Assembly (NCBI GenBank): GCA_964384105.1
Contig: CAYLJV010000006.1
Span: 1-64,000, forward strand
DNA: 64,000 nt
Source: Candidatus Hadarchaeota archaeon
GTDB lineage: Archaea; Hadarchaeota; Hadarchaeia; Hadarchaeales; JAGGTB01
Direction of reading: 5' to 3'
How positions within the stretch are numbered: the first letter of the stretch is position 1; every line of letters starts with the position of its first letter. A program made the position numbers and the translations under genes. The notes beneath the pieces are model-generated. The model saw only the letters and a program-made list of their open reading frames with translations, ran no database searches and was not told the origin of the DNA. Below, piece after piece: positions 2,249 to 48,131 of the stretch.

Positions 2249-4484
<2,236 letters not shown>

Positions 4485-4633
4485 ATGAATGAGACAATTT
4501 ATCCCTAAAAAATTAGTGTATTATTCTGCAATTCTTTTTTCAGTGACAATTTATAGAAAAACAATAAATAGCAACTAAGGGAAACCAGAAAGGATACCCA
4601 CCGCTAGTTTAACAAATAAATTCGTGTATTCAT

Positions 4634-5107
4634 ATGAGAAACAAGGAAAGAAAGAGAGAGCTGGAACAGATATTAAAATCTTATTCACCAGAAAAAGCTA
4701 ATCTTATTCCTATCCTACAAGAAATCCAAAAAAACTTTGGCTATCTCTCAAGGCCTGTGGTTCGAGAGATTTCAGAATATCTCGGTATTTCAGAAAGCAA
4801 AGTATATGGTATTGCAACATTTTACACACAATTCAGGTTTGAACCTCTTGGTAAACACCAAATCAAGATCTGTCATGGTACAGCATGTCATGTTAAAGGT
4901 TCAGAGGGCATTACAGAGACAATTGAAAATTATCTGGGGATTAGGATTGGTAAAACAAGTGAAGACGGAGTTTTTACTTTAGAAAGGGTCGCTTGCTTAG
5001 GGTGTTGTAGTCTAGCCCCCGTTATGATGATTGATGGAGAGGTCTATGGCAACCTCACCCGCGAAAGAGTAGAGGAAGTACTAGAGAATATTGGAGGAGA
5101 ACAGTAA
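4634..5107 (+). CDS. NuoE/HydC-like [2Fe-2S] subunit
   Basis: ATFY, CHGTAC, ACLGCC motifs. Confidence 0.93.
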   Translation: MRNKERKRELEQILKSYSPEKANLIPILQEIQKNFGYLSRPVVREISEYLGISESKVYGIATFYTQFRFEPLGKHQIKICHGTACHVKGSEGITETIENYLGIRIGKTSEDGVFTLERVACLGCCSLAPVMMIDGEVYGNLTRERVEEVLENIGGEQ

Positions 5108-6858
5108 TGACAAAAATTTTATTGGGGTATGCATCTTGTGGTATCGCCTCCGGTGCAAAGGCGATCAAAGAGGAGCTTGAAAAAGTTCTTACAAAAAATG
5201 ACTTGGATTTAGAGGTTAAAAAAGTAGGTTGTCTTGGGATTTGTCATAATGAACCAATTTTAGAGATAGAAGACGAGAATGGAAGATACACTTATGGGAA
5301 TCTTGAACCAGCCGATGTTGAAAAGATAGTGGATTCCCACTTGATAAACGATGAAAGATATGAAGAAAAATTAATTTCTTCTCCTGAAAAGGAATATGAT
5401 TATCTTTCTCAACAGGAAAGAATTGTACTCAGGAACTCAGGTACTATAGATCCTGAGAATATCGAAGATTACATCGAAAAGGATGGATACAAAGGCCTCG
5501 AAAAAGCTTTGAAAATGATCCCGAGAGAAATAATCGACGAAATAATTGAAAGTAGACTAAGAGGACGAGGTGGAGCTGGTTTCCCGACAGGGCTCAAGTG
5601 GGATTTTGTCAAAAAAGCTGAAAAAAATCCAAAATATTTGATATGCAATGCCGATGAGGGAGATCCTGGAGCTTTTATGGATCGGTCTCTCTTAGAAGGG
5701 GATCCACATTCTGTTATAGAAGGCATGATAATCGGTGCTTATGCTGTTGGAGCAAGTAAGGGATACATCTACTGTCGAGCAGAATATCCACTTGCAATCC
5801 GAAGATTGAAAATAGGGATTAGGGCAGCTCGAGAGAAGGGATTTTTAGGAGAAAATATCATGGGTACTAATTTTTCTTTTGATATAGCTATCAAAGAAGG
5901 TGCTGGAGCATTTGTGTGTGGAGAAGAGACAGCTCTTATGAGATCTATCGAAGGGGATAGAGGCATGCCTAAGCCTAGACCACCTTATCCAGCTCAGAGT
6001 GGGTTGTTTGGTAAACCTACCAATATTAACAATGTGGAAACCTGGGCGAACATACCGTATATAATCCGCAAAGGAGTAGACAACTTTTTGAAACTGGGAA
6101 CTGAGAAAAGCGGAGGTACTAAAGTTTTCGCACTCGCGGGTAAGGTGAAGAGAGGTGGGTTAGCAGAAGTGCCGATTGGTACTCCTCTAAGAAAAATAAT
6201 TTTTGAAATTGGTGGTGGTATAGAGGGAGATAGCGAGTTTAAAGCAGTTCAATTGGGAGGTCCCTCTGGAGGCTGTCTTCCAAAAGAATACCTAGATACA
6301 CCTGTGGATTACGAGACCTTGACAAAAGCAGGAGCTATTATGGGGTCCGGTGGAATGATTGTCATAGATGAATGTGATTGTATGATCAATATTGCAAGCT
6401 ATTTCCTTAATTTTACTCAAGAGGAATCTTGTGGTAAGTGTACTTTTTGTCGGGCCGGAACTAAACGAATGCTCGAGATGCTCGAAGCGTTCACAAGAGG
6501 TGAAGGTTCAACCGGGGATATAGATAAGCTAAAAAACCTTGCAAAAAACGTTAAATCCTACTCATTGTGTGGATTAGGTCAAACAGCACCAAATCCTGTG
6601 CTTACTACTTTGGATTATTTTTATGACGAATATGTTCAGCATTTGGAAGAAGGAAAATGCAAAGCGAAAGCTTGTAGGCCTTTAATAATGTATGAGATTA
6701 CAGGTGATTGTATTGGTTGCGGTACTTGCGCTAAAGAGTGTCCTGTAAATGCCATATCGGGGGAGAAAGGGGGGAAGTATGATATAGATCCTGAAAAATG
6801 TACAAAATGTGGTATTTGTGAGGAGGTCTGCCCGATGGACGCGGTTGAGGTGAAGTGA
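5107..6858 (+). CDS. NuoF/HydB-like FMN/NADH-binding subunit with N-terminal thioredoxin-like [2Fe-2S] and C-terminal 2x[4Fe-4S] domains
   Basis: GRGGAGFPTG, CNADEGDPGAFMDR, GAFVCGEETAL, ESCGKCTFCR, two CxxCxxCxxxCP motifs. Confidence 0.93.
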   Translation: MTKILLGYASCGIASGAKAIKEELEKVLTKNDLDLEVKKVGCLGICHNEPILEIEDENGRYTYGNLEPADVEKIVDSHLINDERYEEKLISSPEKEYDYLSQQERIVLRNSGTIDPENIEDYIEKDGYKGLEKALKMIPREIIDEIIESRLRGRGGAGFPTGLKWDFVKKAEKNPKYLICNADEGDPGAFMDRSLLEGDPHSVIEGMIIGAYAVGASKGYIYCRAEYPLAIRRLKIGIRAAREKGFLGENIMGTNFSFDIAIKEGAGAFVCGEETALMRSIEGDRGMPKPRPPYPAQSGLFGKPTNINNVETWANIPYIIRKGVDNFLKLGTEKSGGTKVFALAGKVKRGGLAEVPIGTPLRKIIFEIGGGIEGDSEFKAVQLGGPSGGCLPKEYLDTPVDYETLTKAGAIMGSGGMIVIDECDCMINIASYFLNFTQEESCGKCTFCRAGTKRMLEMLEAFTRGEGSTGDIDKLKNLAKNVKSYSLCGLGQTAPNPVLTTLDYFYDEYVQHLEEGKCKAKACRPLIMYEITGDCIGCGTCAKECPVNAISGEKGGKYDIDPEKCTKCGICEEVCPMDAVEVK

Positions 6859-9795
6859 ATGGAAACAGTGGAAATCTACATTAATGGAAATAAATACGAG
6901 ACTAATGTTGAAAATAGCGTTTTAGATGTGTGTAAAGAAAATGATGTATTCGTACCTACGCTCTGTGAAATTGATTATATAGAAGAGCCCTATGGTGGTT
7001 GTAGACTTTGCCTCGTGGAAATAGAAAATGGGGAAAATACTGAGATTACTACTTCTTGTGATACTCCCGTGCAAGCTGGGATGAAGATAAACACTGATAC
7101 TAATGAAGTTTTAAATGCCAGAAAAATGGCTCTCGAACTTCTTTTATCGGAACACACAGGTGACTGCGTTGCCCCATGTTCGTATGAATGTCCTGCAAGT
7201 TTAGATGTTCAAGGGTACCTTGCCCATATCGCTAATGGACGACCATCTAAAGCTGTAAAGTTAATCAAAGAAAAAACCCCACTGGCCATATCTCTTGGTC
7301 GTGCTTGCTTTGCTCCTTGCGAACAAGAATGCAGGAGGCAGTTAGTAGAAGACCCAATTGCAATAAGACAAGAAAAGATGTATGCGGCGGAAACTGACAT
7401 AAAAAACCCGTGGATACCAGAGATATCTCAAGAAACTGGGAAAAGCGTTGGAGTTGTTGGAGGTGGTCCAGCAGGCCTCACGGCTGCTTATTTCCTTAGA
7501 CTGAAAGGACATTCAGTTACCATATACGATAAAATGCCAGAGTTGGGTGGGATGATGAGATATGGCATACCCAATTATAGATTACCTAAAGATTTGCTCG
7601 ATAAAGAGATAAACTGGATTCTCGATCTCGGAATCGATATAAAAAACAATACTGAGTTAGGCGAGGACATACAAATAGAGGATCTTCGTCAAAAACACGA
7701 TGCTGTGTTTCTTGCAATTGGAGCTTGGAAAGGAATCAGTATCCCAATTGAGGGATACGAGCTACCTAACGTAATCGATGGAATAGAATTCCTACTTGGT
7801 CGTTATTTAGGGCGGGAGTTCAAACTAGGTAAGAAAGTTCTTGTAGTCGGCTGTGGAAACACGGCTATGGATGTTGCTAGAACCGCTCGAAGGATGAATA
7901 AAGATGTAACGGTTGTTTACCGTAGAGCTCTGGATCAAGCACCGGCAGAAAAAGAAGAGATCGAAGAAGCAGAAGAGGAAGGCATAAAATTCACGTTTTT
8001 GGCCAATCCCGAGAAGATATGTGGTTGTGAAGAGAATGGAGTTAGTGAGGTAACTTGCGCAAGAATGGAATTAGGTGAACCCGACGAATCTGGTAGACCT
8101 CGTCCTGTTAAAATTCCCGGTGAAGAATTTTCAATAGAAGCCGATTCAGTTATTATGGCTATTGGTCAAAAGTCAGATCTCGAACTCTTAAGTAAACAAG
8201 GATTGGACGTAGTGGAGCGTACAATAGCGGCAAATGAAAAGTTTCAAACCTGTTACGAGAATGTATTCACTGCCGGCGACCTTCTTCTAGGTCCTTCATC
8301 CATAGTAGAGTGTACTGGACAAGCACGTGTAGCTGCTTTTGCTATTGATGCATACCTAGACGGAAATCTGGAGGAATATACTCCGCCGAAGGATTACAGG
8401 ATACCGTTCGGTTATGTTCATAAAGAGGAGAAGGATGAAGATGATTTCGCAGATTGGGATAAGATTCCCCGAGCTTCGATGCCTAAGAGAAACCCCAAGG
8501 AACGAGCTAATAACTTCAGGGAAATAGAATTAGGGTTTGATGAAAAAAAAGCTAGAAAAGAAGCTGAAAGATGTGTTGAATGTGGCTGTTTAGACAGATT
8601 CGATTGCAAGTTGAGAGAGTATGCCACATTATATGATTCTGATCAGTATGCCTATGTTGGAAACAAAATAGAATATGAGCTAGACGATTCACATGAGTAT
8701 GTTCTTAGAGAGCCTAACAAGTGTATACTTTGTGGGTCATGTGTCAGGGTATCTGAAGATATCCATGACGAAACTCCTATTTATTTTGCCCAAAGGGGTG
8801 CTAAAACAATCATAACACCTGCTTTCGGAGATGAGTTAGGTAAAATTGATAGTGATCTTGTTGGTAATTTAGCTGATTCGTGTCCAACAGGTGCTTTAGA
8901 AGAAAAGAGCAATGAATTGAAACCCGGTCCTTTCAACACCACAGACAGTGGTGAATCCCGTTGTTTTGGTTGTGGGTTGGCATGCCCAGTTGAAGTTTAC
9001 AGTCGAGAGGATATACCAGTAAAGTTCAAACCAGTAAATCATTACGAAACTTATCTTTGTGATATAGGCAAGTTCGAAACTATCCCAGACTTGGAAAGTA
9101 GAAAATCACTGATTGAGAACAATGTATGGTCTCAATTGGAGGAAGTTTTAAAGAATGGGACTTTCGATATTGTCATTTCTCCAAATGCATCTTTAGAGGA
9201 AGTAAAGAAGCTCCAGAAGATCGCAAATGCGGTAGATGGAACTGTCACCTCACCGATTCCTGATAAGAAATCTACTGCTGGATTGGAAGACCTTTTGAAC
9301 ACTAGAAGAATATTTGTTGAAGACAACGCTCTTGATTATAATCCAGTACTAAAAATATTTGTCAAGAAAGCTAAAGAAAACGGTGCAGTTTTGATAGAAT
9401 CCTTGAGAGTATTAGGAAATGGGATAGCAATAGTTAAACCTTATACTGAGACCAAGTCCGAACTGATGATAGTTCCCCAGCCCGGATTGAACGGTTCTGG
9501 TTTAATTGACTTAGGCATATCAGAAGAGGATATTTCGGCGAGAACAGTGTTAATATTTGGTGGTAGTAATCGTTTGGACCAGCTAAAAGATAAAAAAATT
9601 ATCTATTTAACAGAGGAAGTGGATGAACTTACCAAGTTTGCAGATGTTGTTTTACCCATAAGGTCTTGGTTTGAGAAAAAAGGCACTGTGAAAAACACAT
9701 TTTGCGAGAAGGTAGAAATAAATCCGGTAATAGAGTCCACTTTACCAAAAAATTTGGAAGTATTAAATAGGATTATTAATCTTGTCAAAAAATAA
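6859..9795 (+). CDS. GltD-like FAD/NADPH subunit fused to NuoG-type Fe-S domains and a degenerate molybdopterin-oxidoreductase domain
   Basis: PTLC..CRLCLVE..SC, GRACFAPCEQECRR, GGGPAG, GCGNTAMD, CVECGC, CILCGSC, CFGCGLAC..LC, and an ADVVLP..WFEKKG tail; no H-cluster motifs. Confidence 0.85.
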   Translation: METVEIYINGNKYETNVENSVLDVCKENDVFVPTLCEIDYIEEPYGGCRLCLVEIENGENTEITTSCDTPVQAGMKINTDTNEVLNARKMALELLLSEHTGDCVAPCSYECPASLDVQGYLAHIANGRPSKAVKLIKEKTPLAISLGRACFAPCEQECRRQLVEDPIAIRQEKMYAAETDIKNPWIPEISQETGKSVGVVGGGPAGLTAAYFLRLKGHSVTIYDKMPELGGMMRYGIPNYRLPKDLLDKEINWILDLGIDIKNNTELGEDIQIEDLRQKHDAVFLAIGAWKGISIPIEGYELPNVIDGIEFLLGRYLGREFKLGKKVLVVGCGNTAMDVARTARRMNKDVTVVYRRALDQAPAEKEEIEEAEEEGIKFTFLANPEKICGCEENGVSEVTCARMELGEPDESGRPRPVKIPGEEFSIEADSVIMAIGQKSDLELLSKQGLDVVERTIAANEKFQTCYENVFTAGDLLLGPSSIVECTGQARVAAFAIDAYLDGNLEEYTPPKDYRIPFGYVHKEEKDEDDFADWDKIPRASMPKRNPKERANNFREIELGFDEKKARKEAERCVECGCLDRFDCKLREYATLYDSDQYAYVGNKIEYELDDSHEYVLREPNKCILCGSCVRVSEDIHDETPIYFAQRGAKTIITPAFGDELGKIDSDLVGNLADSCPTGALEEKSNELKPGPFNTTDSGESRCFGCGLACPVEVYSREDIPVKFKPVNHYETYLCDIGKFETIPDLESRKSLIENNVWSQLEEVLKNGTFDIVISPNASLEEVKKLQKIANAVDGTVTSPIPDKKSTAGLEDLLNTRRIFVEDNALDYNPVLKIFVKKAKENGAVLIESLRVLGNGIAIVKPYTETKSELMIVPQPGLNGSGLIDLGISEEDISARTVLIFGGSNRLDQLKDKKIIYLTEEVDELTKFADVVLPIRSWFEKKGTVKNTFCEKVEINPVIESTLPKNLEVLNRIINLVKK

Positions 9796-41756: not shown

Positions 41757-42242
41757 CTAAATGTAAATAGATTCCACTTTTTTTGAAATCAATTTTCTCG
41801 TGGTATACTTCCTGATGAATTCATCAATTCTTTCGATTAACTCATTCCTATAATCCAAGACTGGCACATATCCAACGCTATCGTTTATCGGGTCTACTAC
41901 AGTTTTCTTTTTTCCTTGAGCATTCTCTTTTGTGAGCGAGCTCTTCAACCAAGTTCCAATATGAACCTCGACAAAGAAATCTTCGGGACCACCCACCACA
42001 GTAACAGACAGCTCTCTTAATGCCCCTTCTATTTTTTTAGGAACACTAGCTCGTACCGCTGTCAAACTCCTAATCCTTTTATCTTCATCAAAATCACTAG
42101 AAAGCTTTCTGACAATCTTAAATTCTTTCTCCCTCCGAAGTTCATCTTCTATATTATTGAATAAGGAGTCGATATTTATTCCCAAATCCTTGTATCTCTT
42201 TATGAATAACAAACTCTTCTCCCCCACTATAGTCCATCCCAC
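41757..42242 (-). CDS. hypothetical protein
   Basis: 161-aa ORF overlapping the end of the glycosyltransferase. Confidence 0.7.
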   Translation of the reverse strand: MGWTIVGEKSLLFIKRYKDLGINIDSLFNNIEDELRREKEFKIVRKLSSDFDEDKRIRSLTAVRASVPKKIEGALRELSVTVVGGPEDFFVEVHIGTWLKSSLTKENAQGKKKTVVDPINDSVGYVPVLDYRNELIERIDEFIRKYTTRKLISKKVESIYI

Positions 42243-43711
42243 TCTACGCTTTCTCTGTTACCACATTTCCAACACTCAAACACTGCCCCTGTCTTATCTC
42301 TTTTCTTAACTCTCATAATTTTCTTACATTCAGAACATACTCTGGGTACTACGTTATTCCTATCGTATCTTTTAGAACCACAAATAGGACAACAATACTT
42401 TTTAGATCTATTTGCCAGAGTAAAATGACCAACATAAGAACAGTTATTACATGATGCCAACCAAGTACTTTTTTCTTTGCCCCTCTCGTTTCTATACTTA
42501 CTATTTAGCAACCTACGATTGGCTAAATCATCAAGGACTGCACTTGATTCTGATTCGGCATAAATCTCCAAAAGCCTACGCCCAATCTTATCCCAGCTGA
42601 AGTTCTTCAGTTTCCTCTTTCCATTCTTACCCATCTGTTGTGCTAGATTAGGATCGTCAATAGCAAAGTTTATGCCCCATGCAATTGGTTCAGGGTCGGG
42701 GGTTGTCTTTATCCCATCATAAAAGTTCTCAATGTTCTCACTCAAGCCACCAACGTTAGAAGCCACAACTGCATTTCCAGCACTCCAAGCTTCGAATAGA
42801 ACCAAACCAAAAGGTTCGTTTCGGCTAGGGATACACACTAAATCGCTAGCAGTCAAAAGGTCCAGTTTCTCACTCTCGGTTATGTATCCTGGAAACCTAA
42901 TGGAGTTAGAAATCCCTATTTCGTTAGCCCTCGATTCCAAATAGTTTCTCATTCCACCATCACCAACCATCAAGAACTCCGCATCACTTCTATGATCGAG
43001 GACATAGGGGACGGCATTCAACATAATATCTGGTCCTTTCTGGTAATCCATTCTTCCAAGAAACATAACCATCGGTGCTGAAGAATTAACACCAAACTTT
43101 TCCTTTACTTTGCTTGCATCTGCATCCCGCTCAAGATCCGTCACAAAAGAACCATTGGGTACTACATTGATCTTTTCTGAGGGTATTTGGTAAATACTTT
43201 CAAGTTCATCTTTCATAGTTTGAGAAACAGTGACGATTTTGTCCGATACGTAACCCGCCAACCATTCCTTCTCAGCTATTCTTCCTGAATTACCGTAAGT
43301 TCCTTTTTCACCGCCACAACGACCGTATTCGGTTGAATGATAACTCATAACCGTTTCGTGATCTTGAAGTCTATCTAATGCATCAGCAATCATCCAGTCG
43401 TGACCATGAATAATATCGAATCTTCCTTCGTCTCCCTCAACTTCGCGAACACAATTTGTCATTGATTTGCACATTTTTTCTGTATGTTCAAATATGCTGC
43501 CTCTTGGATTAAATTTGCATCTGTGATAGTGAACTCCATTTATGAGATTGTGGTCTTCTTGTTCGGCCTCAGATCGAGTGAATACATGAACCTCTTGTCC
43601 ATTGTCTGCTAAACCTTCAGCCATTCCAGTTACAGCCTGAGCGAGCCCACCTACTCGTATTGAATGAAGAGACTCCCAAGAGAGCATTCCAATTTTTAGA
43701 GTTTCACCCAT
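42227..43711 (-). CDS. GT4 glycosyltransferase with C-terminal four-CxxC extension
   Basis: SWES..VGGL, HGHDW, HSTEYGR, GR...QKG, PSRNEPFG..EAW; tail CNNC, CPIC, CSEC, CWKC. Confidence 0.92.
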   Translation of the reverse strand: MGETLKIGMLSWESLHSIRVGGLAQAVTGMAEGLADNGQEVHVFTRSEAEQEDHNLINGVHYHRCKFNPRGSIFEHTEKMCKSMTNCVREVEGDEGRFDIIHGHDWMIADALDRLQDHETVMSYHSTEYGRCGGEKGTYGNSGRIAEKEWLAGYVSDKIVTVSQTMKDELESIYQIPSEKINVVPNGSFVTDLERDADASKVKEKFGVNSSAPMVMFLGRMDYQKGPDIMLNAVPYVLDHRSDAEFLMVGDGGMRNYLESRANEIGISNSIRFPGYITESEKLDLLTASDLVCIPSRNEPFGLVLFEAWSAGNAVVASNVGGLSENIENFYDGIKTTPDPEPIAWGINFAIDDPNLAQQMGKNGKRKLKNFSWDKIGRRLLEIYAESESSAVLDDLANRRLLNSKYRNERGKEKSTWLASCNNCSYVGHFTLANRSKKYCCPICGSKRYDRNNVVPRVCSECKKIMRVKKRDKTGAVFECWKCGNRESVEWDGL

Positions 43712-43996
43712 TCACAACCCACACTTTAAGAGCGACCAATCGTTACCGAAGTAAGACTGTTCGCCGCTACCTCCACGAATTCAAAGATACGGCTTTTCAC
43801 AAGCCACCAACCCGGTCCCATATAGGAAAAGTGGATTCCAATTAAAATAACAAAGAGAAAAAATTCTAGATAGTTCTACTATATAGTCTTACTAGTAAGC
43901 TATTGTCCATAACAATCTGAAAGAAAAATGACAAGCTTCTCTCTTATTCACGGAATTATGAATATGATAAAGATAGACACTCATAAATCTAAAAGT

Positions 43997-44079
43997 ATGG
44001 GGAGTGGCCGGCTCAATTGAGTATAAAGTTTGTTAACCCAGGGCTCGGAGGCTGGTTTAAGCCGACCCTTTACTCCCAT
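43997..44079. other. GC-rich imperfect inverted repeat (structured RNA or MITE-like element)
   Basis: ATGGGGAGTGGCCGGCTCAA ... TTAAGCCGACCCTTTACTCCCAT in an AT-rich divergent intergenic region. Confidence 0.55.
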
Positions 44080-44307
44080 TTCTCCTTCTTTTTTCTTAAA
44101 AATAAAGGCTGTAGAAAAAAGTCTATGTAGTAAAACTCTATCGAAGGAAAAAGCAAGCAACTAAACACCAACTATTATCTCTACCTCAAGGACTAACTGA
44201 GCGATATTGAGAAACAATAAAACCGGAAACACTTAATCACATACCCAAGAAGTGTAAGTTCTAATTCAGAAATTATTAATAATATCAGGGGGTTAAACTG
44301 TAAGAAG

Positions 44308-44562
44308 ATGCCAGAAAAAAAGGGGAGAGTTAAAAAAATAAATGTTCTAGGGGAGACCTGCCCTGTTCCGCTCGTCGAAACTAGAAAAGCTATCAGAAGT
44401 GCATCAGAAGGAGACATCATAGAAGTCACGGGTAGTCACTCAGCCTCGAAAGAAGAGATTCCAATGGCTGTAGAAGAGATGGGATTAGAACTTCTAGAAG
44501 TATCGGATGAAGGAGAAAATTGGAAAATTAGGATTAGAATTCCAAAAGAGGAGGGAGAATAA
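44308..44562 (+). CDS. tusA: TusA/SirA family sulfur carrier
   Basis: GETCPVP (CPxP) motif. Confidence 0.9.
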   Translation: MPEKKGRVKKINVLGETCPVPLVETRKAIRSASEGDIIEVTGSHSASKEEIPMAVEEMGLELLEVSDEGENWKIRIRIPKEEGE

Positions 44563-44981
44563 TTTCTGAAAAAGTTACTTTGATTGTGCATAGTGGGGAT
44601 ATGGATAAGGTTTACAGCGCTTTCATTATTGGTAATGGTGCGTTGTCCATGGGCATGGATGTTTCCATGTTCTTCACCTTCTGGGGTTTGGAAAGATTGA
44701 AGAAGGGCCAGTTGGAGGAGGGTTCACTCTCAAGGAAGAACATGATGGGTTTAGGAAAGTGGATGATCAACAAGAAGATGAAAGAAGCCAACGTCCGCTC
44801 GCTAGAAGACTTACTTCAAGACTACGTCGAACTCGGAGGAAAAATCCTCGCCTGCGACATGACCATGGAAATCATGGGGATAAGCAAACAAGACTTACGC
44901 GACGAAGTCATAACCGACTACTGCGCAGTCGGAACCTACCTCAAAGAAGCAAAAGAATCACAAATCACACTATTCATTTGA
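44562..44981 (+). CDS. DsrE/DsrE2-like sulfur transfer protein
   Basis: SGDMDK, FFTFWG, LACDMTM; start placed at ATT 44562, overlapping the tusA TAA. Confidence 0.9.
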   Translation: MSEKVTLIVHSGDMDKVYSAFIIGNGALSMGMDVSMFFTFWGLERLKKGQLEEGSLSRKNMMGLGKWMINKKMKEANVRSLEDLLQDYVELGGKILACDMTMEIMGISKQDLRDEVITDYCAVGTYLKEAKESQITLFI

Positions 44982-44991
44982 GGGATTCTAA

Positions 44992-46158
44992 TTGAATAAA
45001 GACTTAGTTTATTTGGATAATGCAGCTAGTACTCGGATGGATGAACGAGTCCTAGAAGCTATGAAACCCTATTTCTTTGATACATACGCTGTAGCGACCT
45101 CCGAGTTTGCTTATAGCATGGGTATAGAAGCCAAGGAAGCTCTTAACAACTCAAGGAAATCGATAGCTTCCTACATTGGATGCTCCCCAAATGAGTTGAT
45201 ATTTACCTCCGGAAGTACAGAATCCAGTAATTTAGCATTGAAGGGCGTTGCAAATTCCTTGAAAAAAGAGAGAAACCATATTATAACCTCCAAAATTGAG
45301 GATTTTCCTGTACTTAATAGCGCAAAATCTTTAGAGAAAAAAGGCTTCGAGGTAACTTATCTAGACGTAGACTCTGATGGACTAGTCGATTTGAACCAAC
45401 TAAATGAAGAGATCAATGATGACACACTTCTAGTTTCGATTCAGCACGCGAACCAAGAGATAGGAACTTTGCAAAAAATTGGAGACATAGCAGAAATATG
45501 TAATGACAACGATGTCCTCTTCCACACCGATGCCACACATACTTTCACTAGAGTTCCTCTTGATTTAAGTAAGATGCCAATCGATTTAGTTACATTCTCG
45601 GCCCATACAATCCATGGCCCTAAGGGAATAGGCGGGCTTTACGTGCGCGAAGGAACACCTCTTGAGAAACAGATCGATGGTGGATTTCAAGAAAACAATC
45701 TGAGAGCGGGAGTAGAGAATATACCAGGAGCTGTTGGTTTTGCGAAAGCCGTCGATTTAGTTGATGAAAAGGAAAACAAAAAACTAGGGAATATGAGAGA
45801 CAAGCTCATAGATACGTTACTCAAAGAAGTTTCTGATACAACACTAAACGGCCATAGGAAACAAAGAACTCCACAAAATGCAAACATAACCTTTCATTAT
45901 GTAGAAGGCGAATCGATAACATTGCACTTAGATATGAAAGGATTTGCAGTTAGTACTGGGTCTGCCTGTTTCAGCAAATCGTTAGAGGCAAGCCACGTTA
46001 TAACAGGTATAGGTGGTGACCATGAAAGAGCTCACGGCTCTGTAAGGTTTACCTTTGGTAGGTACAACGAGATGGCAGAGGTCGAAAAAACTGTAAATGC
46101 TGTTTCAGAAGTTGTTGAAAAACTTCGAGAGATAAGTCCTTTAGGAAAAGAAGAATGA
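44992..46158 (+). CDS. IscS/NifS homologue lacking the PLP lysine
   Basis: YLDNAAST, FTSGSTES, GPKG, GSAC present, but SAHT replaces SAHK and IED replaces IEH. Confidence 0.9.
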   Translation: MNKDLVYLDNAASTRMDERVLEAMKPYFFDTYAVATSEFAYSMGIEAKEALNNSRKSIASYIGCSPNELIFTSGSTESSNLALKGVANSLKKERNHIITSKIEDFPVLNSAKSLEKKGFEVTYLDVDSDGLVDLNQLNEEINDDTLLVSIQHANQEIGTLQKIGDIAEICNDNDVLFHTDATHTFTRVPLDLSKMPIDLVTFSAHTIHGPKGIGGLYVREGTPLEKQIDGGFQENNLRAGVENIPGAVGFAKAVDLVDEKENKKLGNMRDKLIDTLLKEVSDTTLNGHRKQRTPQNANITFHYVEGESITLHLDMKGFAVSTGSACFSKSLEASHVITGIGGDHERAHGSVRFTFGRYNEMAEVEKTVNAVSEVVEKLREISPLGKEE

Positions 46159-46185
46159 AGTATTATGGAACGGAAGTGATAAAAT

Positions 46186-46821
46186 TTGGAATCACCATAT
46201 AGCGATAAAGTAATTGAATATTTTCAAAACCCGAAAAACGTCGGCGAAATAAAGAATCCAGACGGAAAAGCAAAAGAGGGAAGTCCAGCTTGCGGGGACA
46301 TGGTTTCCCTTTACATAAAAGTTGATGAAGAGACAAGGAAGATAACGGATATAAAATTCAAATCTTATGGTTGTGCTTCCAATATAGCCACGGGATCGAT
46401 AATAACCGAAATGGCAAAAGGAAGGACGATTGATGAAGCTAAGAAAATTACTTGGAAAGACGCAGCAGATGAGCTTGGAGGTCTCCCTTCCGTGAAAACA
46501 CATTGTTCTGTTCTAGCTGTTGATGCTTTGAAAGAAGCAATTAGAGACTACGAAGAAAGGCATGGGCTTGTAAAAGAAAAGGAACCAACCACCGAAGAAA
46601 TAGTCAAGGAAAGACTAAAACATGTTATGAATCCACTCACTGGATTAGACGTAATTAATACCAATCTAATCAAAAACATTGAGATCGGAGATGAAAAAAT
46701 CACTATAGATGTGGATTTACCTGAGGGCCACCAATTTGCGTCCGCTGTTAAAAATGATATAAAGGAAAAACTTGAAACTCGGTGGGATATAGAAGAAATA
46801 AAAATCAACTTCAAAAATTAA
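46186..46821 (+). CDS. iscU: IscU/NifU scaffold fused to a DUF59/SufT-like domain
   Basis: YF.NPKNVG, ACGD, GCAS, KTHCS; C-terminal L..V.NP.TG.D. Confidence 0.88.
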   Translation: MESPYSDKVIEYFQNPKNVGEIKNPDGKAKEGSPACGDMVSLYIKVDEETRKITDIKFKSYGCASNIATGSIITEMAKGRTIDEAKKITWKDAADELGGLPSVKTHCSVLAVDALKEAIRDYEERHGLVKEKEPTTEEIVKERLKHVMNPLTGLDVINTNLIKNIEIGDEKITIDVDLPEGHQFASAVKNDIKEKLETRWDIEEIKINFKN

Positions 46822-46836
46822 TTACCACTACTCAAG

Positions 46837-46916
46837 TCAAATCAACCGCTCAGATCGCTCTGCCTTTGCTTTACAATCGGACAAACTGGGGAGGTATTTC
46901 TCGCACATACATATCC
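46837..46916 (-). pseudogene. remnant rubredoxin-like tail of a ferredoxin:disulfide (glutaredoxin) reductase
   Basis: GYVCAR...CPI/KAKAERSERLI* immediately after the glutaredoxin, frameshifted, no start. Confidence 0.55.
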
Positions 46917-46926
46917 TCTCCGTCAG

Positions 46927-47220
46927 TCACTCCAATGCACCTTTTATTTCGTCCTCTTTAAAACCAACGATAACTTCATCTCCATCATCTATCACTACAG
47001 TCGGGAGGTTCATATGAGGGTTATACTCTTTGAGTTGTTTACGAGCTTTTTCCTTAGCGTTTCCTTCAAGCTTATCTATATCAACATACTCATATTCAAC
47101 ATCAAGTTCTTTCAGCAATTTTTTCGTCTTTTTACACCAGCCACATGTACTTAATGCATAAAGCCTTACACTTTTCTTTTTTCTACTTCCCGATACTTTT
47201 TCGAAAATATCCATAATCAT
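46927..47220 (-). CDS. glutaredoxin (NrdH-like)
   Basis: LYALSTCGWCKKT, NP...P...I.GF. Confidence 0.92.
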   Translation of the reverse strand: MIMDIFEKVSGSRKKKSVRLYALSTCGWCKKTKKLLKELDVEYEYVDIDKLEGNAKEKARKQLKEYNPHMNLPTVVIDDGDEVIVGFKEDEIKGALE

Positions 47221-47261
47221 TCCTCTATTGATTATCGTTATACTTATTTAAAATTGAAAAT

Positions 47262-48131
47262 TTACCTTTCAGTTAGGTTTTTTATCTTTCCAAAATACTT
47301 CTGATGATACTCCTCTGCTTTATAGAAATCGGAAACTGGGACAATTTCAGTTACTATCTTGGTATACTGTCCTTTTTTCTCAAGTTTTTCTTTAACCGTT
47401 TCAGCTATTCTTTTCTGCCTTTCATCATAATAATAGATAGCAGAACGGTATTGATTGCCAATATCCGGACCCTGTCTATCTATTTGAGTTGGATCATGAA
47501 TCTCGAAGAAGAATTCAACCAGTGTTTCATAATCTATTTCTAGTGGGTTATAAGTTACCTTTACGGCTTCCGCATGTCCTGTTTTACCACTACAAACTTC
47601 GCTATATTTGGGGTCGGAGGTTTCACCACCCGTATAGCCCACCATAGTCGATACCACACCCTCAAAACTATTGAACTTGTGCTCAACACCCCAAAAACAG
47701 CCAGCTGCAAAAATCCCTTTCTCACAGAATTCGTCTTTCGGCCTGAAGTTTAGAGACGCCGAATTTATACAATAGTGTTTTCCGGTAGGTGGTGGACCAT
47801 CGTCAAATACATGCCCCAGATGACCACCACAGATAGCGCACTTCACTTCCGTTCTTTTGTATCCAATCTTAAAGTCATCTGAGAATTCCACAGCCTTAAC
47901 CCTAATCGGTCCAGTAAAACTAGGCCAACCTGAACCATGATCATATTTAGCTTCAGAACTAAAAAGAGGATTTCCGCATCCTGCACAAAAATAAACCCCA
48001 GATTCATACTTGTCGTTATATTCTCCACTGCCAGGTCTCTCAGTCTCCCCCTCTCTCAAGACTCTGTATTCTAAAGGAGAAAGTAAATTCTCCCAATACT
48101 CATCAGATTTTATTAATATCGGATCAGGCAT
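47262..48131 (-). CDS. msrAB: methionine sulfoxide reductase MsrB-MsrA fusion
   Basis: TE..GSG, GWPSF, GHLGHVF.DGP, YCINS; GCFWG, GHAE, QYRS, AEEYHQ. Confidence 0.95.
   Translation of the reverse strand: MPDPILIKSDEYWENLLSPLEYRVLREGETERPGSGEYNDKYESGVYFCAGCGNPLFSSEAKYDHGSGWPSFTGPIRVKAVEFSDDFKIGYKRTEVKCAICGGHLGHVFDDGPPPTGKHYCINSASLNFRPKDEFCEKGIFAAGCFWGVEHKFNSFEGVVSTMVGYTGGETSDPKYSEVCSGKTGHAEAVKVTYNPLEIDYETLVEFFFEIHDPTQIDRQGPDIGNQYRSAIYYYDERQKRIAETVKEKLEKKGQYTKIVTEIVPVSDFYKAEEYHQKYFGKIKNLTER

Follow-up and report, generated by a model that had tools for sequence, protein, structure and literature searches.

Four adjacent genes in a 64,000-nucleotide stretch of a Candidatus Hadarchaeota archaeon contig (GenBank CAYLJV010000006.1, positions 1 to 64,000; the whole stretch is called here the window) encode a TusA-family sulfur carrier, a DsrE2-like sulfur carrier, a homologue of the cysteine desulfurase IscS without the lysine that binds pyridoxal 5'-phosphate (PLP), and an IscU scaffold protein fused to a DUF59 domain. 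This cassette is found in many oxygen-avoiding archaea and bacteria. A functional tie of TusA and DsrE to a PLP-less IscS-IscU pair, which had been the central idea of an earlier interpretation of the window made from its letters alone (the sequence-only reading), receives strong comparative support from synteny, co-variation and clade-wide linkage. In the interpretation to which we attach moderate confidence, the four genes form a minimal iron-sulfur cluster (ISC) assembly module, of the minimal iron-sulfur (MIS) type, in which TusA and the DsrE2-like protein are tied to a PLP-free IscS-IscU pair and likely feed sulfane sulfur into it. The subject bears on an open question, namely how sulfur enters the iron-sulfur (Fe-S) clusters of anaerobic archaea and bacteria, without or alongside cysteine desulfurases. 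In Methanosarcina acetivorans, SufBC and IscSU2 can both be deleted (PMC10500019, PMC7585200).

The four co-directional genes are separated by spacers of 17, 10 and 27 nt. Their layout, based on the open reading frame (ORF) map, Pfam matches and alignments, is the following.

44308-46821, forward strand: tusA-dsrE2-like-iscS-iscU::DUF59, operon-like module
44308-44562, forward strand: tusA, 84-residue TusA-family sulfur carrier (PF01206, 74.8 bits, E 4.8e-21)
44580-44981, forward strand: dsrE2-like gene, 133-residue DsrE/DsrF/DsrH-like carrier (PF13686, 130.5 bits, E 6.8e-38)
44992-46158, forward strand: iscS, 388-residue type I IscS/NifS homologue, class-V aminotransferase (PF00266, 240 bits, E 4.7e-71)
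46186-46821, forward strand: iscU::DUF59, 211 residues (PF01592, NifU_N, 154.5 bits, E 1.9e-45; PF01883, 44.5 bits, E 1.9e-11)
about 46186-46575, forward strand: IscU scaffold domain of iscU::DUF59, residues 1-130, with C36, D38, C63, H106 and C107
about 46600-46800, forward strand: DUF59/FeS_assembly_P domain of iscU::DUF59, residues 139-205 (PF01883)
45301-45303, 45454-45456 and 45529-45531, forward strand: iscS codons for D104, Q155 and D180
45538-45540, 45607-45609 (ACA) and 45967-45969 (TGT), forward strand: iscS codons for H183, T206 and the loop Cys326

An IscS homologue with a replaced PLP pocket

The protein was aligned with E. coli K-12 IscS, whose numbering is used here for pocket positions. 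The position of the Schiff-base Lys206, a residue required for desulfuration, is occupied by Thr within the motif S-A-H-T. The complete set of substitutions at the positions considered is N35V, H104D, N155Q, Q183H, K206T and T243V, while T76, D180, S203, H205, C328 (Cys326 of the protein itself) and R354 are retained; H104, N155, D180, Q183, S203, H205 and T243 are positions that we take, from the E. coli IscS structure literature, to be PLP contacts. The loss of the Schiff-base Lys and of other PLP contacts with retention of the mobile-loop Cys had been proposed in the sequence-only reading, and the alignment bears it out in detail: the IED, DATH, SAHT and VATS motifs were read correctly, ACA at 45607-45609 does encode Thr and TGT at 45967-45969 the Cys of GSAC, and the 388-codon frame is full-length and intact. 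The mobile-loop motif is STGSACFS, with Cys326.

The protein belongs to the class-V aminotransferase fold and sequence family (240 bits for PF00266 against a cut-off of 21.5), and it falls below the NCBIfam equivalog cut-offs for NifS (446.9 versus 530.75) and IscS (393.7 versus 643.2). Judged as a type I cysteine desulfurase (EC 2.8.1.7), the protein has the fold and the loop Cys and is without the Schiff-base Lys and further PLP contacts. Its top matches in the PDB are 9wep (3.5e-100) and IscS2 of Archaeoglobus fulgidus (4eb5/4r5f, 3.8e-99), and the combination of Lys loss, loop Cys and an adjoining three-Cys IscU places the window locus with PLP-less IscS of the A. fulgidus kind.

These changes are a conserved state. 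A homologue scan with one genome per species returned 237 relatives, the best 80 of which were used, giving 81 orthologues with the window's protein. The 80 relatives are 66-77% identical to the latter (mean pairwise identity within the family is about 70% across the two domains) and come from 45 archaeal and 35 bacterial records of at least 11 named phyla. Archaeal carriers are Methanosarcina, Methanothrix, Methanomethylovorans, Thermoplasmata, Hadarchaeota, Heimdallarchaeota and Methanobacteriaceae; bacterial ones include Dehalococcoidales, Halanaerobiales, Thermodesulfovibrionales and Syntrophales. T206, H183, Q155 and the loop Cys326 are each present in 81/81 orthologues, 79 have Asp and 2 have Asn at position 104, and the loop motif STGSACFS is exact in 76/81. 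Synonymous sites are saturated at this level of protein identity, and codon turnover at the key residues was therefore used in place of the ratio of nonsynonymous to synonymous substitution rates. T206 is encoded by ACA in 18, ACT in 13, ACC in 30 and ACG in 20 orthologues, and both synonymous codons are in use for D104, H183 and C326, which argues that these residues are held by selection and that the recurring pocket changes go beyond chance or sequencing error.

The family defined by this Lys-to-Thr replacement (K-to-T family) is sharply delimited. When its 81 members were compared with 115 canonical IscS sequences, 22 positions were fixed in at least 95% of the former and found in at most 10% of the latter; those lining the PLP pocket are 35, 104, 105, 151, 155, 183 and 206, and another is Phe327, right after the catalytic Cys. 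At 50% identity, a search of 1.84 billion library representatives reduces the family to a single cluster and two fragments; the next match of full length is just 54% identical. An orthologue (67-77% identity) was present in 6/6 genomes of the window's genus and in none of 34 genomes from other genera of the window's order, where the best match was at most 48% identical. Close syntenic homologues that keep SAHK, which would have spoken for private decay, were looked for, and all 81 proteins have Thr instead, as expected from the sequence-only reading. A decaying pseudo-enzyme or private lesion, for which the missing Lys alone would speak, is practically ruled out by the intact frame, the 81/81 Thr206, the four Thr codons and the six same-genus genomes.

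The carriers and the fused scaffold

The partner proteins retain the residues expected of sulfur carriers and of an Fe-S scaffold; the TusA CPxP and DsrE LAC motifs, the three IscU Cys and the DUF59-like fusion, all recognised from the letters alone, were recovered by Pfam and alignments. TusA scores 74.8 bits with PF01206 (cut-off 28.6) and has the Cys-Pro-x-Pro active-site motif C18-P-V-P, whose Cys18 (codon 44359-44361) is found in 73/74 aligned homologues, the last row being a gap; 19 columns are invariant among 24 cassette TusA proteins. The NCBIfam TusA, YedF and YeeD equivalogs all stay under cut-off. The DsrE2-like protein carries Cys92 (codon 44853-44855) in ILAC, conserved in 75/75 homologues and aligned with the Cys of its PDB relatives 3pnx and 2qs7. 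Its score is 130.5 bits with PF13686 (cut-off 25) and 67.8 bits with the NCBIfam DsrE2 model (NF047629, cut-off 210), for which reason it is best named DsrE2-like.

The IscU domain has the ligands C36, D38, C63, H106 and C107 together with LPSVK, an LPPVK-like motif, and its Cys and His ligands occur in 77-78 of 78 aligned rows. Its top PDB match is A. fulgidus IscU (4eb5_C, 5.5e-41), and the NCBIfam IscU and NifU equivalogs are under cut-off. The DUF59 domain (residues 139-205; 44.5 bits with PF01883, cut-off 23.5) has a His182 present in 73/78 rows. Because the NifS, IscS, IscU, TusA and DsrE2 equivalogs all fall below cut-off, the cassette proteins should be regarded as relatives rather than standard members of the named families. 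A predicted complex of the cassette IscS with TusA gave ipSAE values of 0.08 and 0.06 (mark 0.32), which carry no weight either way.

Conservation of the cassette

The order tusA-dsrE2-iscS-iscU::DUF59 on one strand was found at 69/80 loci. In 7 of the 11 exceptions fewer than 600 nt were left on a side cut by a contig end. The four real exceptions are iscS alone (L011), two loci without dsrE2 (L019, L045) and one without tusA and dsrE2 within 5 kb (L079). The iscU match extends into the DUF59 part at 75/80 loci, and the pairwise identities of the four cassette proteins co-vary (r 0.74-0.83, 2415 pairs). When ORFs of at least 70 residues in the 5-kb flanks of the 80 loci were clustered, no fifth gene was shared beyond single lineages. 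On a FastTree of the 81 cassette IscS proteins, the archaeal/bacterial label changes five times, at least two of these changes being forced by the starred branches. The cassette thus has the appearance of a self-contained module passed between lineages, within the reach of labels taken from record titles and of records that include bins.

Linkage of TusA and DsrE to the state of the IscS pocket

The co-occurrence of Lys loss with tusA-dsrE synteny, proposed with the sequence-only reading as a test, turned out positive in several clades and broader than expected: overall, TusA or DsrE accompany canonical IscS at 0/64 loci and IscS of the A. fulgidus type, with Lys replaced by Asp (K-to-D), at 31/32. 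In genomes of the window's phylum and five other cassette genomes, IscS-like genes with E<1e-100 to the IscS profile were collected, duplicates were removed and neighbours within about 1.5 kb were examined. None of 23 Lys-retaining IscS loci had a TusA or DsrE neighbour. Among K-to-D loci (S-N-D signature), tusA and dsrE stood together with a plain iscU at 10/11, and a contig end cuts the remaining one; of the 11 K-to-T loci, 8 were complete, 2 were cut by contig ends and 1 (Methanococcoides) truly lacked the carriers. A second set consisted of 301 genomes from the phylum of a cassette-carrying Methanosarcina genome (G043). Among its best 30 loci, all 21 K-to-D loci had TusA and/or DsrE (11 both, 4 DsrE only, 6 TusA only), and none of the nine canonical IscS loci had either. 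Pfam confirmed all ten neighbours tested at six loci (4 TusA, PF01206; 6 DsrE-family, PF02635/PF13686).

The linkage reaches the organism type from which the PLP-less structure was obtained. One genome (G242) holds an IscS identical at 381/382 positions to PDB 4eb5_A, the A. fulgidus IscS2 chain, together with a paralogous IscS (L183 and L163). The crystallised-type copy has only a truncated 94-residue dsrE upstream and no tusA, and resembles a partial duplicate. The paralogue, which differs from 4eb5_A at about one position in eight as read off the alignment (E 4.8e-228), lies in a complete tusA-dsrE-iscS-iscU arrangement, with a further DsrE2-like gene about 0.5 kb past iscU.

A metagenome scan with a sister protein of the K-to-T family (P0005) as query yielded 80 loci. 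Canonical IscS was accompanied by TusA/DsrE at 0/48 loci and by IscU-DUF59 at 0/48. Proteins that keep Lys and have a changed pocket, for example H-Q-D-Q-K or H-Q-D-L-K at positions 104, 155, 180, 183 and 206, were accompanied by TusA/DsrE at 6/11 loci and by IscU-DUF59 at 9/11; those with Lys-to-Leu were linked at 3/6 loci (3/3 with full flanks). Gene order in the linked metagenome loci is iscS-iscU::DUF59-tusA-(dsrE2), unlike that of the window. Taken together, these associations make a functional coupling of TusA/DsrE to the PLP-less IscS-IscU pair well supported on comparative genomic grounds.

Some of these loci have features of their own. At L170, L175 and L178, the IscU beside a K-to-D IscS bears a C-terminal extension of about 130 residues (264 in total) with weak FMO-like and Pyr_redox_3 matches. 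Lys-to-Gln (K-to-Q) IscS proteins (L220-L249; K206Q, H205D) are followed by IscU and, judging from translations, by NadA-like ORFs in all five loci whose downstream ORFs were read and by rubrerythrin-like ORFs in four of these; an Nfu-like ORF stands upstream in both loci checked.

Phylogeny and fate of the pocket

In a quick IQ-TREE analysis of 71 selected rows (15 of 153 rows outside 360-460 residues were left out), the K-to-T family is a clade with a Shimodaira-Hasegawa-like approximate likelihood ratio (SH-aLRT) support of 99, nested in a 17-row clade of degenerate pockets (98), and the A. fulgidus-like group is a separate 16-row group (85). A tree uniting all 33 PLP-less rows was not rejected by the approximately unbiased (AU) test (log-likelihood difference 29.0, p-AU 0.164), meaning that one and two origins of PLP-less IscS are indistinguishable. 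When 20 of the 80 metagenome loci were added in FastTree, again as a quick tree with the root assumed at E. coli, a 31-row clade (support 96) was recovered, whose members are DUF59/TusA/DsrE2-linked where flanks allow. Within it, a Lys-retaining protein (L194, H-Q-D-Q-K) accompanied by TusA, DsrE2 and DUF59 branches beside the K-to-T family, and Lys-less and Lys-retaining proteins form two sister pairs (L189 with L207, L193 with L198), both with support 99.

These topologies suggest that Lys was probably lost several times within a clade that already held the carriers. Since the linkage to TusA, DsrE2 and DUF59 is also seen in Lys-retaining relatives, the relay would be older than the loss of Lys, and the carrier relay probably came first and made PLP chemistry dispensable. 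An evolutionary series is thereby outlined, from Lys kept, through a relaxed pocket, to Lys lost several times, in which a catalytic site became dispensable after a relay was recruited.

The fate of the pocket differs between groups. In the K-to-T family, positions 155, 180, 183, 206 and 354 are 100% conserved, yet 39% of all columns are conserved at 95% or more. In the sister clade (21 rows), conservation is 0.29 at position 183 (7th percentile), 0.48 at 206 and 0.57 at 104, with C328 and R354 at 100%. Asp occupies position 206 in 82% of the 28 rows of the A. fulgidus-like clade, most of which have lost R354. The loop Cys is 100% conserved in all four groups and R354 in three. We read this pattern of conservation as pointing to a relaxation, throughout the linked clades, of the selection on PLP chemistry; in the K-to-T family a new constraint on the pocket may have become fixed. 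The earlier argument that coordinated pocket changes speak for repurposing rather than decay gains weak support: the pocket residues are indeed invariant in the family, but so are many other columns, and in the sister clades just these positions are among the least conserved.

Relation to known systems

Proteins of this kind have been described before. The IscS of A. fulgidus has no desulfurase activity owing to a Lys-to-Asp replacement, and its Cys ligates a [2Fe-2S] cluster on IscU (PMC7585200, PMC13066941, bioRxiv 10.1101/2024.03.20.586028). In Methanosarcina acetivorans, IscS1 (MA0808) misses PLP-binding residues including the essential Lys, and an action like that of A. fulgidus IscS was suggested (Deere et al. 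2020, PMC7585200). The same source describes IscS1 as insoluble alone and clustered with four genes of unknown function; its main text mentions none of TusA, DsrE and DUF59. Methanosarcina loci of the present set (e.g. L046, L087) fall inside the K-to-T clade, with 67-69% identity and the same four-gene order. Moreover, the IscS1 loop motif STGSACFS is that of the K-to-T family, and the 24 kDa given for IscU1 (MA0807; PMC7585200) fits a DUF59 fusion. From motif, size and these loci, we infer that the window cassette is the counterpart of M. acetivorans isc1.

The A. fulgidus IscS2-IscU pair (PDB 4EB5, 4EB7, 4HVK; D199K variant 4R5F) resembles the cassette in its PLP-less type I IscS, loop Cys, IscU partner and membership of a tusA/dsrE-linked clade. 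It differs in having Asp rather than Thr in place of Lys, H104 kept, Ala at Q183, R354 mostly lost and a plain IscU without DUF59. The DsrE partner of this type matched PF02635 best in 4 of 7 cases tested, and the group forms a separate clade in the trees, with a single PLP-less clade not rejected (p-AU 0.164). Three families, IscS, TusA and DsrE, are also shared with the E. coli IscS-TusA-TusBCD relay, in which persulfide passes between conserved Cys. There, an active IscS is the source and sulfur flows outward to tRNA thiolation, whereas the cassette IscS most likely cannot be the source and IscU is part of the operon. The DsrE3A/DsrE2B-TusA relays of Metallosphaera and Hyphomicrobium likewise have TusA and a DsrE-family protein encoded side by side, and 2qs7 and 3pnx are relatives of the DsrE2-like protein of the cassette. 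Those relays feed dissimilatory sulfur oxidation (sHdr, rDsr; PMC11094781), while the pair of the cassette is firmly associated with an Fe-S scaffold and occurs in anaerobes.

The cassette also resembles the MIS system (Garcia et al. 2022, as described in PMC13066941), a two-gene core of IscS-like and IscU-like proteins without chaperones, ferredoxin or IscA. MIS has no additional components and uses a cysteine desulfurase, MisS; the cassette adds two carriers and a DUF59 fusion, and its desulfurase site is gone. With tusA and dsrE2 constant at 69/80 loci, it departs from MIS as a system without accessory genes, and a 2026 review still describes MIS as without additional components and treats TusA with regard to E. 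coli (PMC13066941). Minimal iscSU pairs, with A. fulgidus iscS2U2 among them, do not complement E. coli even when sulfide is supplied, which led the authors to raise the question of the missing component (bioRxiv 10.1101/2024.03.20.586028). Concrete candidates are TusA and a DsrE-family carrier, which occur across at least 11 named phyla and also beside the A. fulgidus paralogue; they make that question directly testable.

The missing Lys of M. acetivorans IscS1 and the PLP-less principle in A. fulgidus are already known. Within the literature searched, what appears new is the constant four-gene architecture across two domains, IscU::DUF59 included, the TusA/DsrE linkage reaching the A. fulgidus type and the repeated Lys losses in a carrier-linked clade. 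No published text treating an IscS/IscU-TusA-DsrE2 linkage was found, Garcia et al. 2022, supplements and subscription TusA reviews lying outside the reach of the search.

Sulfur and Fe-S genes elsewhere in the carrier genomes

The window's genome (1.6 Mb, 90% complete) contains further genes for sulfur handling. A second tusA-dsrE2 pair (L264, G000:C1:452500-460500; 4332-4995 on the minus and 5065-7707 on the plus strand) encodes a DsrE2 identical to that of the cassette at 129/133 positions (97%) and a TusA identical at 48/71 (68%). This pair is divergent from genes for a hemerythrin/DUF438 protein, a stand-alone DUF59 protein, a second hemerythrin and a radical SAM/SPASM protein. Elsewhere, a YeeE/YedE-type sulfur transporter gene (PF04143) is directly followed by a third TusA gene (L265, G000:C1:280500-287000). 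The association of the second pair fits the view that TusA/DsrE2 is a portable unit for sulfur handling with ties to Fe-S or iron proteins. Jointly with the YeeE-TusA genes it shows that a putative route of entry for inorganic sulfur is present in the genome. Neither observation proves anything on the flow of sulfur.

L265 resembles the YeeE-YeeD thiosulfate uptake pair, and its surroundings include DUF169, a SepSecS/SepCysS-like class-V enzyme, a ThiS-ThiF fusion and a DtxR/FeoA-type iron repressor. The second IscS of the window's genome (L002, G000:C1:293836-294984) keeps Lys206 and has N155D, D180N and Q183A; it adjoins a plain IscU and an ORF that, from its translation, resembles O-acetylhomoserine sulfhydrylase. 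Among same-order relatives (L135-L151), 14 share T-N-D-N-A-S-H-K, with H104N too, and the fifteenth (L140) has T-N-D-D-A-S-H-K with D180. The N155D/D180N combination of this type may represent a compensated PLP pocket.

Proposed mechanism and alternative explanations

TusA and members of the DsrE family are carriers of Cys-bound persulfide or thiosulfonate, and conserved synteny, co-variation and clade-wide association tie them to the PLP-less pair. In the mechanism favoured here, the cassette IscS would be unable to hold PLP as an internal aldimine and most likely would not desulfurate cysteine, most likely still dimerising and docking IscU. By homology with the A. fulgidus complex, its Cys326 could act as persulfide acceptor and donor, as fourth cluster ligand, or as both. 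TusA Cys18 and Cys92 of the DsrE2-like protein would be the persulfide or thiosulfonate carriers serving the IscS-IscU pair, and their most likely role would be to bring sulfane sulfur, from a source other than catalysis by this IscS, to Cys326 and/or IscU. An inward flow is likely because this IscS should be unable to make persulfide itself. The DUF59 domain, going by its family annotation, probably helps to pass the cluster to client proteins. A transfer from DsrE through TusA and the IscS Cys to IscU, drawn by analogy, and the independence of the module from cysteine are put forward as hypotheses.

An extension of this mechanism, which we regard as possible and hold only tentatively, makes the PLP-less IscS the hub of a third mode of sulfur input for ISC assembly, in which the carriers load the loop Cys from inorganic or low-molecular-weight sulfur and the K-to-T pocket has been re-fixed as a ligand site, for instance for Fe(II). 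D104, Q155, D180, H183, H205 and T206 would be candidate ligands, and IscS would become a combined donor of sulfur and iron. PLP chemistry would then be dispensable, leading to repeated loss of Lys, and the failure of heterologous iscSU complementation would find an explanation.

Several findings weigh against the mechanism in general or restrict its scope. A canonical Lys-bearing enzyme of the IscS/NifS/SufS type is present in 6/6 cassette genomes checked, the window's included, so that cysteine could still be the ultimate source of sulfur and the module would be an addition rather than the sole route. The window's genome also contains one SufB homologue and a second iscS-iscU pair, and the module is consequently not demonstrably essential. 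A Methanococcoides chromosome (L079) and one Chloroflexota locus (L011) have no tusA or dsrE2 within 5 kb. The K-to-Q group (SHSDAADQ) has TusA in just 3/12 loci (1/4 with full flanks) and DUF59 in 0/12, and a Lys-bearing class-V gene (L108), under the E<1e-100 threshold, adjoins a 216-residue ORF with a weak TusA-profile match (3e-05). Finally, related genomes are not independent, so that the contingency counts overstate the number of events.

The presence of canonical desulfurases leads directly to the idea of a cysteine-dependent relay in trans, in which a SufS/Csd-like or IscS2-type enzyme encoded elsewhere makes the persulfide and TusA/DsrE2 ferry it to a catalytically dead IscS-IscU scaffold; the module would then be a specialised branch for delivery that still depends on cysteine. 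A protein with the full T/S-H-N-D-Q-x-H-K-T-C-R signature exists in the window's genome (the SufS/Csd-like L001) and in each of the five further cassette genomes checked, which include two complete chromosomes (Dehalococcoidales, Thermodesulfovibrionales). Lys-retaining members of the clade are already linked to TusA/DsrE2, so that the carriers can work with an active desulfurase, and E. coli TusA does take persulfide from IscS (PMC13066941). On the other hand, none of the 80 cassette loci has a canonical desulfurase gene within 5 kb, and the habitats of these organisms are sulfidic and anoxic, conditions under which sulfur other than that of cysteine is used for Fe-S clusters (work on Methanococcus maripaludis cited in PMC10500019 and PMC13066941); we consider such a relay unlikely, though less so than the other alternatives. 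Somewhat more doubtful appears a purely structural role, in which IscS stabilises IscU and lends a Cys ligand, free sulfide supplies the cluster, and TusA/DsrE2 buffer, remove or redirect sulfane sulfur, in detoxification or in the control of cluster assembly, or withdraw it from the complex. This would agree with the published proposal for A. fulgidus IscS (PMC7585200, bioRxiv 10.1101/2024.03.20.586028), with the competition of E. coli TusA with IscU on IscS, which it modulates (cited in PMC13066941), and with the detoxification of reactive sulfur species proposed for DsrE4-type proteins (PMC11094781). It leaves unexplained, however, why the loop Cys alone persists in each of the Lys-less clades and why the carriers keep their Cys, and the failure of A. 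fulgidus iscS2U2 with sulfide to complement E. coli suggests that something else is needed (bioRxiv 10.1101/2024.03.20.586028).

In E. coli, the synthesis of tRNA 2-thiouridine and of the molybdenum cofactor involves TusA and proteins of the DsrE family (PMC13066941), and the module might in principle serve such a thio-cofactor pathway (thiolation of tRNA, molybdopterin or thiamine) or the trafficking of selenium; the top NCBIfam match of the cassette TusA is in fact the YedF selenium-metabolism model, with 40.3 bits far under its cut-off of 79. This is improbable given an IscU with all ligands and a DUF59 fusion at 75-77 of 80 loci and the absence of any conserved MnmA, ThiI, MoaD or SelD-type gene in the 5-kb flanks of these loci. 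A selenium role is unlikely; to our knowledge, Methanosarcina species, which carry the cassette, have no selenoproteins. Less probable still, and hardly credible, is that the cassette IscS is still a PLP enzyme, holding the cofactor non-covalently or through another Lys and desulfurating cysteine or a related substrate. D180, S203, H205, T76 and the substrate-carboxylate Arg354 are retained, the last at 100% in the family, yet four or five PLP contacts (K206, H104, Q183, N155, T243) have been replaced together and invariantly, the same positions are among the least conserved columns in the sister clade (183 at the 7th percentile), as expected if PLP is dispensable, and the K-to-D protein of A. 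fulgidus is inactive (PMC7585200).

Surroundings of the cassette

The region preceding the cassette is the following.

43712-44307, no strand assigned: intergenic stretch, presumed promoter region, between the divergent glycosyltransferase gene and tusA (ORF map)

The upstream neighbour of tusA is this divergent glycosyltransferase gene, and downstream lie opposite-strand genes for a glutaredoxin and an MsrB-MsrA fusion; with its flanks divergent upstream and on the opposite strand downstream, the unit consists of the four genes only. An Rfam scan of 43500-47300 gave no family above threshold and a single sub-threshold sR30 match, within dsrE2. The glutaredoxin and MsrB-MsrA fusion genes (46927-48131, reverse strand) converge on the 3' end of the operon and give it thiol-redox surroundings, a neighbourhood that is not conserved in the 5-kb flanks of the other cassette loci. 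The glycosyltransferase, of the GT4 family (42227-43711, reverse strand; Pfam match over residues 6-381 approximately), ends in a C-terminal tail of about 100 residues with many CxxC pairs, resembling a zinc ribbon.

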